This document shows, one piece after another, positions 18,519-19,059 of a DNA stretch of 64,000 nucleotides. The DNA is from Escherichia coli (GTDB lineage: Bacteria; Pseudomonadota; Gammaproteobacteria; Enterobacterales; Enterobacteriaceae). Under the pieces are notes generated by a model. The model worked only from the letters and a program-made list of their open reading frames with translations. It ran no database searches and had not been told where the DNA came from. The position numbers and the translations under genes are program-made. The DNA lies in assembly GCF_003334815.1 (NCBI RefSeq), contig NZ_QOWO01000019.1; one strand, 5' to 3'. Each line of letters starts with the position of its first letter. Positions within the stretch are counted from its first letter, which is position 1.

Positions 18519-19004
18519 ATGCAAGTTTTTATCATGCGTCACGGCGACGCAGCCCTCGATGCCGCCAGTGATTCCGTTCGTCCTCTGACCACTAATGGTT
18601 GTGACGAATCTCGCCTGATGGCGAACTGGCTGAAAGGTCAAAAAGTGGAAATCGAACGCGTTCTGGTGAGCCCGTTCCTGCGAGCCGAGCAAACACTGGA
18701 AGAAGTAGGGGATTGTCTGAACCTGCCTTCCAGTGCAGAAGTTCTGCCGGAGTTAACGCCCTGCGGCGATGTTGGTCTGGTCAGTGCCTATTTGCAGGCG
18801 TTGACCAATGAAGGTGTTGCTTCGGTACTGGTGATCTCTCACTTACCGTTAGTCGGGTATCTGGTTGCCGAGTTATGTCCGGGCGAAACGCCGCCTATGT
18901 TTACCACCTCGGCCATTGCCAGCGTAACGCTTGATGAAAGCGGAAACGGCACATTCAACTGGCAGATGAGCCCGTGTAATCTGAAGATGGCAAAAGCTAT
19001 CTGA
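18519..19004 (+). CDS. sixA: Phosphohistidine phosphatase SixA
   Basis: 161-aa ORF MQVFIMRHGDAA... with RHG catalytic motif of the histidine phosphatase superfamily. Confidence 0.93.
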   Translation: MQVFIMRHGDAALDAASDSVRPLTTNGCDESRLMANWLKGQKVEIERVLVSPFLRAEQTLEEVGDCLNLPSSAEVLPELTPCGDVGLVSAYLQALTNEGVASVLVISHLPLVGYLVAELCPGETPPMFTTSAIASVTLDESGNGTFNWQMSPCNLKMAKAI

Positions 19005-19059
19005 TGAGTTCCAAATTATGCCCAATGAGGTAGATTCATTGGGCATAATTGCTCATCAG
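19001..19059. repeat. Nested palindrome / stem-loop immediately after sixA stop
   Basis: Outer arms CTGATGAG / CTCATCAG and inner arms TTATGCCCAATGA / TCATTGGGCATAA around a 7-nt loop; no clear T-run. Confidence 0.5.

Follow-up and report, generated by a model that had tools for sequence, protein, structure and literature searches.

A long nested palindrome lies directly behind the stop codon of sixA in Escherichia coli, and the question raised by this locus is what such an element does between sixA and the fimbrial operon that follows. The stretch analysed, hereafter the window, is 64,000 nucleotides (64 kb) long and corresponds closely to E. coli K-12; a single base differs from NC_000913.3 (MG1655) across the 8.7 kb compared, and MG1655 coordinates are given by 2475331 minus the window position, a conversion checked on the ends of sixA. 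On the plus strand, fadJ (16172-18316) precedes sixA (18519-19004; 161 aa, TGA at 19002-19004), which is followed by yfcV (19685-20248), the first gene of a yfc chaperone-usher operon that continues to 26103. The smrB gene (26174-26725) is convergent to this operon. The annotation of NC_000913.3 carries no feature in the sixA-yfcV interval, leaving the palindrome unannotated in the reference genome. The sole difference from MG1655 in the 8.7 kb lies in yfcU (ORF 20330-22975), where codon 22064-22066 reads TAC (Tyr) here and TAG (amber) in NC_000913.3. The gene is annotated as a pseudogene in the latter, whilst the TAC codon leaves the usher gene intact in the window, which accordingly does not stem from MG1655 itself.

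The palindrome and its fold

A first-pass annotation, made by reading the sequence, had reported two concentric inverted repeats at 19001-19059, with outer arms of 8 bp and inner arms of 13 bp, forming a stem-loop that begins within the sixA stop codon. Both repeats are present and the element reads CTGATGAG-ttcca-AATTATGCCCAATGA-ggtagat-TCATTGGGCATAATT-g-CTCATCAG. The outer arms are indeed 8 bp long, comprising CTGATGAG (19001-19008), which contains the TGA, and CTCATCAG (19052-19059), and they can be extended to 18996-19064 with one bulge. The inner hairpin (19014-19050, plus strand) is longer than was claimed; its arms, AATTATGCCCAATGA (19014-19028) and TCATTGGGCATAATT (19036-19050), form 15 perfect base pairs separated by 7 nt, to which RNAfold adds a G·U pair, making 16 in all around a 5-nt loop. 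A GCCC/GGGC core lies within the stem, so the element has the G/C-containing hairpin typical of intrinsic terminators.

A calculation of folding energy, proposed in the annotation as a check, supports the structure. An 86-nt RNA spanning the element folds at -40.6 kcal/mol, compared with -19.1 ± 3.2 kcal/mol in 200 dinucleotide shuffles (z = -6.8), none of which folds as well, and the inner hairpin alone accounts for -21.4 kcal/mol. The opposite strand folds almost equally well because the element is a palindrome. By our own arithmetic, chance alone would give about 0.002 perfect 15-nt inverted repeats (loop of at most 30 nt) per 64 kb, and only five inverted repeats with a seed of at least 12 nt and a spacer of at most 30 nt occur in the whole 64-kb window. 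Two 57-aa ORFs, at 19018-19191 (plus strand) and 18873-19046 (minus strand), start at an ATG in each arm and both begin MPNE; these mirror-image ORFs are almost certainly a by-product of the dyad symmetry.

Of 5426 complete E. coli genomes, 3100 carry the palindrome, at a single place in each and never on a plasmid, and no second close copy of an arm is found within the 64-kb window. A repeated or mobile element, such as a REP or MITE, is therefore rejected on copy number. In common with the REP/BIME stabilisers of mRNA 3' ends, the element is an intergenic palindrome situated behind a stop codon and capable of blocking 3' exonucleases, but it is single-copy and lacks the REP consensus, in agreement with the earlier statement that it is not a canonical REP sequence. 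Membership of a known RNA family was likewise discarded, the gathering score not being reached for any Rfam 15 family and the only matches being at chance level (E = 1.7 and 7.1).

The annotation had also held that the hairpin lacks a U-tract and is not a classic intrinsic terminator, and a terminator scan of 18300-19800 accordingly called none. The full stem is followed by GCAGCGGA, and nowhere in the 3' arm or beyond it does the T-tail score improve on -2.06, versus -3.6 to -5.0 in alleles that carry T-runs (see below). Taking a U-tract to require about five or more U in the 8 nt directly 3' of the stem, the K-12-type hairpin has none.

The 3' end of sixA mRNA and the Rho-sensitive region

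Mapping of transcript 3' ends had been suggested as a further check, and the answer is found in published data. The primary sixA 3' terminus is reported at MG1655 position 2456276 (interval 2456271-2456282), with p values from 6e-39 to 4e-85 (PMC10687069, TRS, Supplementary Data 2-4), whilst other sheets of the same work place it at 2456275 and 2456278. This terminus is supported by several RNAtag-seq and Term-seq datasets, and the upstream sequence, UGAGUUCC...GCUCAU, is depicted there folded as this hairpin, with a 3' untranslated region (UTR) of 52 nt (PMC10687069). The element is therefore already in a published supplementary table, where it stands without comment. In window coordinates the end falls at ~19055 (termini span 19053-19056), leaving 5 nt after the inner stem and omitting the last 4 nt of the outer stem. 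Per nucleotide, the sixA 3' UTR has ~4-5 times as many read starts as the coding sequence (PMC10687069), as expected of a persistent hairpin fragment. The curated Term-seq list of Adams et al. 2021 (PMC7815308) contains no 3' end at this position, no sixA entry was found in the TERMITe supplements and a literature search on a sixA terminator turned up only irrelevant gene lists.

Among the roles that the annotation had offered for the palindrome were a stabiliser of the mRNA 3' end and a boundary insulating sixA from the fimbrial leader. Both are supported by the position of the mapped 3' end, which lies at the 3' foot of the palindrome and makes it the end of the sixA transcription unit. The hairpin very probably both defines and protects the 3' end of the sixA mRNA, with the inner hairpin the likely barrier to exonucleases. 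Since the mapped end falls within the 3' arm of the outer stem, the mature RNA probably lacks a complete outer stem.

Other 3' ends are recorded nearby. In the fadJ-sixA spacer, two Term-seq 3' ends of Adams et al. map to 18402 and 18498 (plus strand), 117 and 21 nt 5' of the sixA ATG, the second being preceded by an inverted repeat identified by eye, GTTTTCTTTC...GAAAGAAAAC (~18454-18487); these could be ends of fadIJ transcripts or premature ends in the sixA leader. At the far end of the yfc operon, between the convergent yfcO and smrB genes, another hairpin without a U-tract, GGCAGGGGC-attc-GCCCCTGCC (26110-26161; core arms 26119-26127 and 26132-26140), is flanked by published 3' termini on both strands, yfcO at 2449183 (26148) and smrB at 2449221 (26110), and looks like a shared bidirectional 3'-end structure.

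Downstream of the palindrome, the plus strand carries a C-rich, G-poor, rut-like tract (19060-19160; GC skew -0.44 to -0.47). Its 78-nt segment at 19075-19152 (22 C, 6 G), which begins 16 nt past the palindrome, has the highest C-over-G skew on the plus strand of the whole 64 kb, and all 78-nt segments starting between 19050 and 19080 fall at or above the 99.8th percentile by this measure. Judged by composition, this tract would be suitable as a Rho utilisation site. An origin of the tract as a relic of the smrB 3' end, left behind when the yfc operon was inserted, was considered and rejected, as its alignment to the end of smrB (26174) scores 14 against 15.5 ± 2.1 for shuffled sequences, 434 of 500 of which align as well.

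A bicyclomycin-sensitive Rho region has been reported on the sixA strand (minus in MG1655), with a peak at 2456198, a score of 9.29 and p = 1.1e-41 (PMC7815308). This peak corresponds to window position ~19133, which is 74 nt downstream of the palindrome and inside 19075-19152. Coverage upstream and downstream of the region is 136 and 73 without bicyclomycin, versus 148 and 738 with it (PMC7815308). As the downstream value in the presence of the drug is five times the upstream one, most of the gain must derive, not from read-through of sixA, but from transcripts with starts within the intergenic region, in a promoter island or at the yfcV promoter. The sixA-yfcV spacer is listed as a 'promoter island' (PMC3661553), and genomic SELEX has assigned a constitutive sigma-70 promoter to yfcV and also places H-NS in this spacer (PMC3946193). 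A promoter-like TTGAAA-17-TATAGT element (19273-19301, plus strand) matches this assignment. A second Rho region, on the opposite strand, peaks at MG1655 2455977 (window 19354). Rho clearly acts in the sixA-yfcV region and probably terminates transcription just downstream of the hairpin.

This arrangement resembles one already described in E. coli, in which Rho-dependent transcripts have precise steady-state 3' ends right after stable stem-loops that shield the RNA from PNPase and RNase II; these stem-loops lack U-rich tails and upstream A-tracts, and C is enriched over G downstream of them (Dar & Sorek 2018). The sixA element shares the stem-loop directly before a precise 3' end (19053-19056), the lack of a U-rich tail, the downstream excess of C over G, a bicyclomycin-sensitive region nearby and the poor expression of its gene. 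It differs in having an A-rich 5' flank, now paired into the stem, in the overlap of its outer stem with the stop codon and in its unusual length and stability (-34 to -41 kcal/mol, against a median of ~-23.5 kcal/mol for hairpins after sixA in related bacteria); moreover, that Rho terminates the sixA transcripts themselves is something we infer. The hairpin belongs to a known class, that of 3' stem-loops lacking a U-tract, and its transcript end is probably Rho-dependent.

A route to the mapped end can be proposed on this basis. The palindrome would make up the final ~50 nt of the sixA transcript, its very stable stem-loop setting and protecting the 3' end. RNA polymerase would first pass the hairpin, since no U-tract follows it, after which Rho would load at ~19060-19160 and terminate transcription in the AT-rich, H-NS-bound region upstream of yfcV. 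We infer that PNPase and RNase II would then trim the tail 3'-to-5' until the 16-bp inner stem is met, leaving an end ~5 nt beyond it. Ribosomes terminating at the TGA would probably keep the 8-bp outer stem from closing, given that the stop codon falls within it and that only 10 nt lie between its start and the inner stem; the position of the mature end within the outer 3' arm would then be accounted for, as would the poor conservation of that stem. Overall, sixA would obtain a message with a fixed end and greater stability, and few transcripts would continue into the silenced yfc fimbrial genes. Taken as a whole, this route of Rho termination followed by trimming is, on balance, somewhat probable.

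Hairpins after sixA in Escherichia and its relatives

In other Enterobacteriaceae, sixA is normally convergent with smrB. A strong hairpin follows the sixA stop codon in all 79 enterobacterial loci compared, with a median stability of -23.5 kcal/mol, and only one of them is more stable than the K-12 hairpin (-34.1 kcal/mol on this measure). By eye, the slot is occupied by canonical bidirectional terminators in Citrobacter, Kosakonia, Phytobacter and Trabulsiella, by GGCGGG...CCCGCC hairpins without a U-tract in Enterobacter, Lelliottia and Leclercia, and by REP-like elements in Salmonella and some Citrobacter. A classification of the 79 hairpins by T-count is uninformative because the best stems absorb the pairing between A-tract and T-tract, and the set was used only for the presence and stability of a hairpin. 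Within the Enterobacter, Lelliottia and Leclercia group (L024-L030, L035, L038 and related loci), complementary arms, CTGAC.../...GTCAG, hold the sixA TGA and the convergent smrB stop codon (TCA on this strand), ~0-55 nt after the sixA stop, and enclose the GGCGGG...CCCGCC hairpin; a U-tract is present on neither strand. This nested architecture is similar to that of K-12 and was reached independently.

Matches to four post-sixA alleles number 5390 in the set of 5426 complete E. coli genomes (~99%). The K-12-type allele is present in 3100 genomes (57%), the S88/B2-type in 1227, the RIVM_C036569-type in 634 and the O157-type in 429, and a hairpin lies at the same place in every one. Similarity of three of the non-K-12 alleles to K-12 stops at window position 19000, at the sixA stop; the O157 allele can be aligned with K-12 across the 5' arm, as far as 19027. 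The four major sixA-yfcV intergenic alleles are mutually unalignable and yfcV differs too; the whole yfc fimbrial locus appears to consist of alternative cassettes, since the variation extends to the gene as well as the spacer.

A core of ATGCCC...GGGCA is common to the hairpins of K-12, O157-type and S88-type E. coli, Escherichia whittamii, Escherichia albertii and the divergent strain L091. Around it, compensatory double changes are found at ~5 positions of the upper stem and 2 at the stem base, for example a change from G-C to A-T in the pair that follows CCC/GGG in K-12, together with exchanges amongst A-T, T-A and G-C further in, whilst the loops are unrelated. The combination of compensated stems and free loops indicates that the fold, rather than the sequence, is preserved. 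Within the K-12 type, the identical 86-mer occurs in 2028 genomes and a variant with A19007T in another 989; this substitution breaks one outer-stem pair without compensation, weakening the fold from -40.6 to -36.2 kcal/mol. The inner stem is unchanged in both of these 86-mers, which together cover 3017 of the 3100 carriers, and is identical in all five K-12-type sequences read.

The alleles differ in what follows the core. The O157 version continues with TTGTCTTTTT and that of E. albertii with TTCTGTTTT, and both are called terminators by the same scan. Long T-runs follow the hairpins of the RIVM-type and L091 alleles, although the scan called no terminator in the RIVM-type allele despite its T-run; the loop limit of the scan is 8, and the RIVM-type stem as read has a loop of ~14 nt. 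The S88-type tail, GTTTCTCC, is weak. The K-12 element shares with the O157 and E. albertii terminators its position after the sixA stop, an ATGCCC...GGGCAT core and an A-rich 5' flank, but carries AATTGCTC in place of the TTGTCTTTTT or TTCTGTTTT U-tract. The former A-tract and U-tract positions read AAATTAT...ATAATT in K-12 and pair perfectly, and the sequence continues GCTCATCAGG. From these alignments, the simplest reading is that the K-12-type hairpin derives from an ancestral Escherichia intrinsic terminator by loss of the U-tract and lengthening of the stem, since O157 and E. albertii have retained both a normal U-tract and, with compensatory changes around it, the ATGCCC core. The K-12-type allele combines the absence of a U-tract with an adjacent, extreme C-rich tract. 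A more tentative proposal, possible rather than probable, is that the sixA 3' end forms an allelic series within the species, in which an intrinsic terminator has been converted to a U-tract-less hairpin that relies on Rho; on this view the K-12-type allele would have gained its C-rich tract, with compensatory changes maintaining the fold during the conversion.

Competing explanations and significance

The main rival to Rho termination and trimming, judged rather unlikely, is a weak non-canonical intrinsic terminator that releases the transcript at ~19054-19056 without Rho, the G/C-rich upper stem UGCCCAAUGA...UCAUUGGGCA serving as its hairpin and UAAUUGCUCA as a degenerate U-tract. At intrinsic terminators, 7-9 nt separate the G/C core from the transcript end, and the sixA end at ~19055 is ~9 nt after the GGGCA core (19042-19046). 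The 5' flank, CCAAAUUA, is A-rich like that of bidirectional terminators, and the homologous elements of O157-type E. coli and E. albertii, as described above, are U-tract terminators called by the scan. However, only 3 U are present in the 8 nt after GGGCAU, in line with the tail score of -2.06 and the negative scan. In the K-12 RNA, AAUUAU and AUAAUU occupy the A-tract and U-tract positions and pair perfectly, extending the stem, so that they would not remain as a single-stranded tail. The extreme C-over-G tract and the Rho-sensitive region just downstream also count against Rho-free release, as does a TRS statistic, the meaning of whose column is unconfirmed, of 0.75-0.84 at sixA versus 0.98-1.0 at the U-tract terminators of yfcZ, fadL and mlaA.

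Retroregulation by RNase III, in the manner of lambda sib, is a second and very unlikely explanation. Here, read-through RNA would form a coaxial duplex of ~25 bp that is cut, leading to decay of the sixA mRNA, whilst RNA ending at ~19055 would be stable. In common with the lambda sib/tI retroregulator, the structure is nested and can form its complete duplex only when the RNA continues beyond the mature 3' end; this end lies inside the outer 3' arm, so complete and incomplete forms differ, and the full structure, 16 plus 8-10 bp with a small internal loop, is in principle long enough. The lambda element is, however, an RNase III hairpin, whereas cleavage at sixA is hypothetical and the outer stem is poorly conserved, one of its pairs being mismatched without compensation in 989 of the 3100 carrier genomes. 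A ribosome at the stop codon would hold this stem open, and the other alleles are short ordinary hairpins.

Highly improbable, finally, is a role of the palindrome as DNA, either as the site of a dimeric regulator of the yfc operon or as a cruciform or recombination hotspot edging the variable yfc region, for which its perfect dyad symmetry and the end of similarity to three other E. coli alleles exactly at 19000 could be cited; that boundary falls where coding constraint ends, which is explanation enough for it, and O157 remains homologous to K-12 across the 5' arm as far as 19027. Arms of 15 bp with a spacing of 7 would be unusual in a regulator site, the yfcV promoter (19273-19301) is ~225 bp further downstream and an RNA 3' end maps to the element. 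The protein-binding site that the first-pass annotation had listed as a third option is likewise disfavoured by the Escherichia alleles, in which compensatory double changes keep the stem and leave the loop free, preserving the fold and not the sequence.

With the hairpin as the defined and protected end of its message, sixA gains a transcript end and a 3' UTR of ~51 nt, and a palindrome left unannotated in the reference genome is explained. The locus is a clear added example of the U-tract-less 3' stem-loops tied to Rho-dependent termination, with little import beyond annotation in that respect. The four hairpin alleles at one site also offer a natural comparison of terminator types beside a variable fimbrial operon. 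If the alleles do differ in mechanism, they would provide a ready-made system for studying why genes change their mode of termination beside fimbrial operons that are silenced by H-NS and exchanged horizontally.
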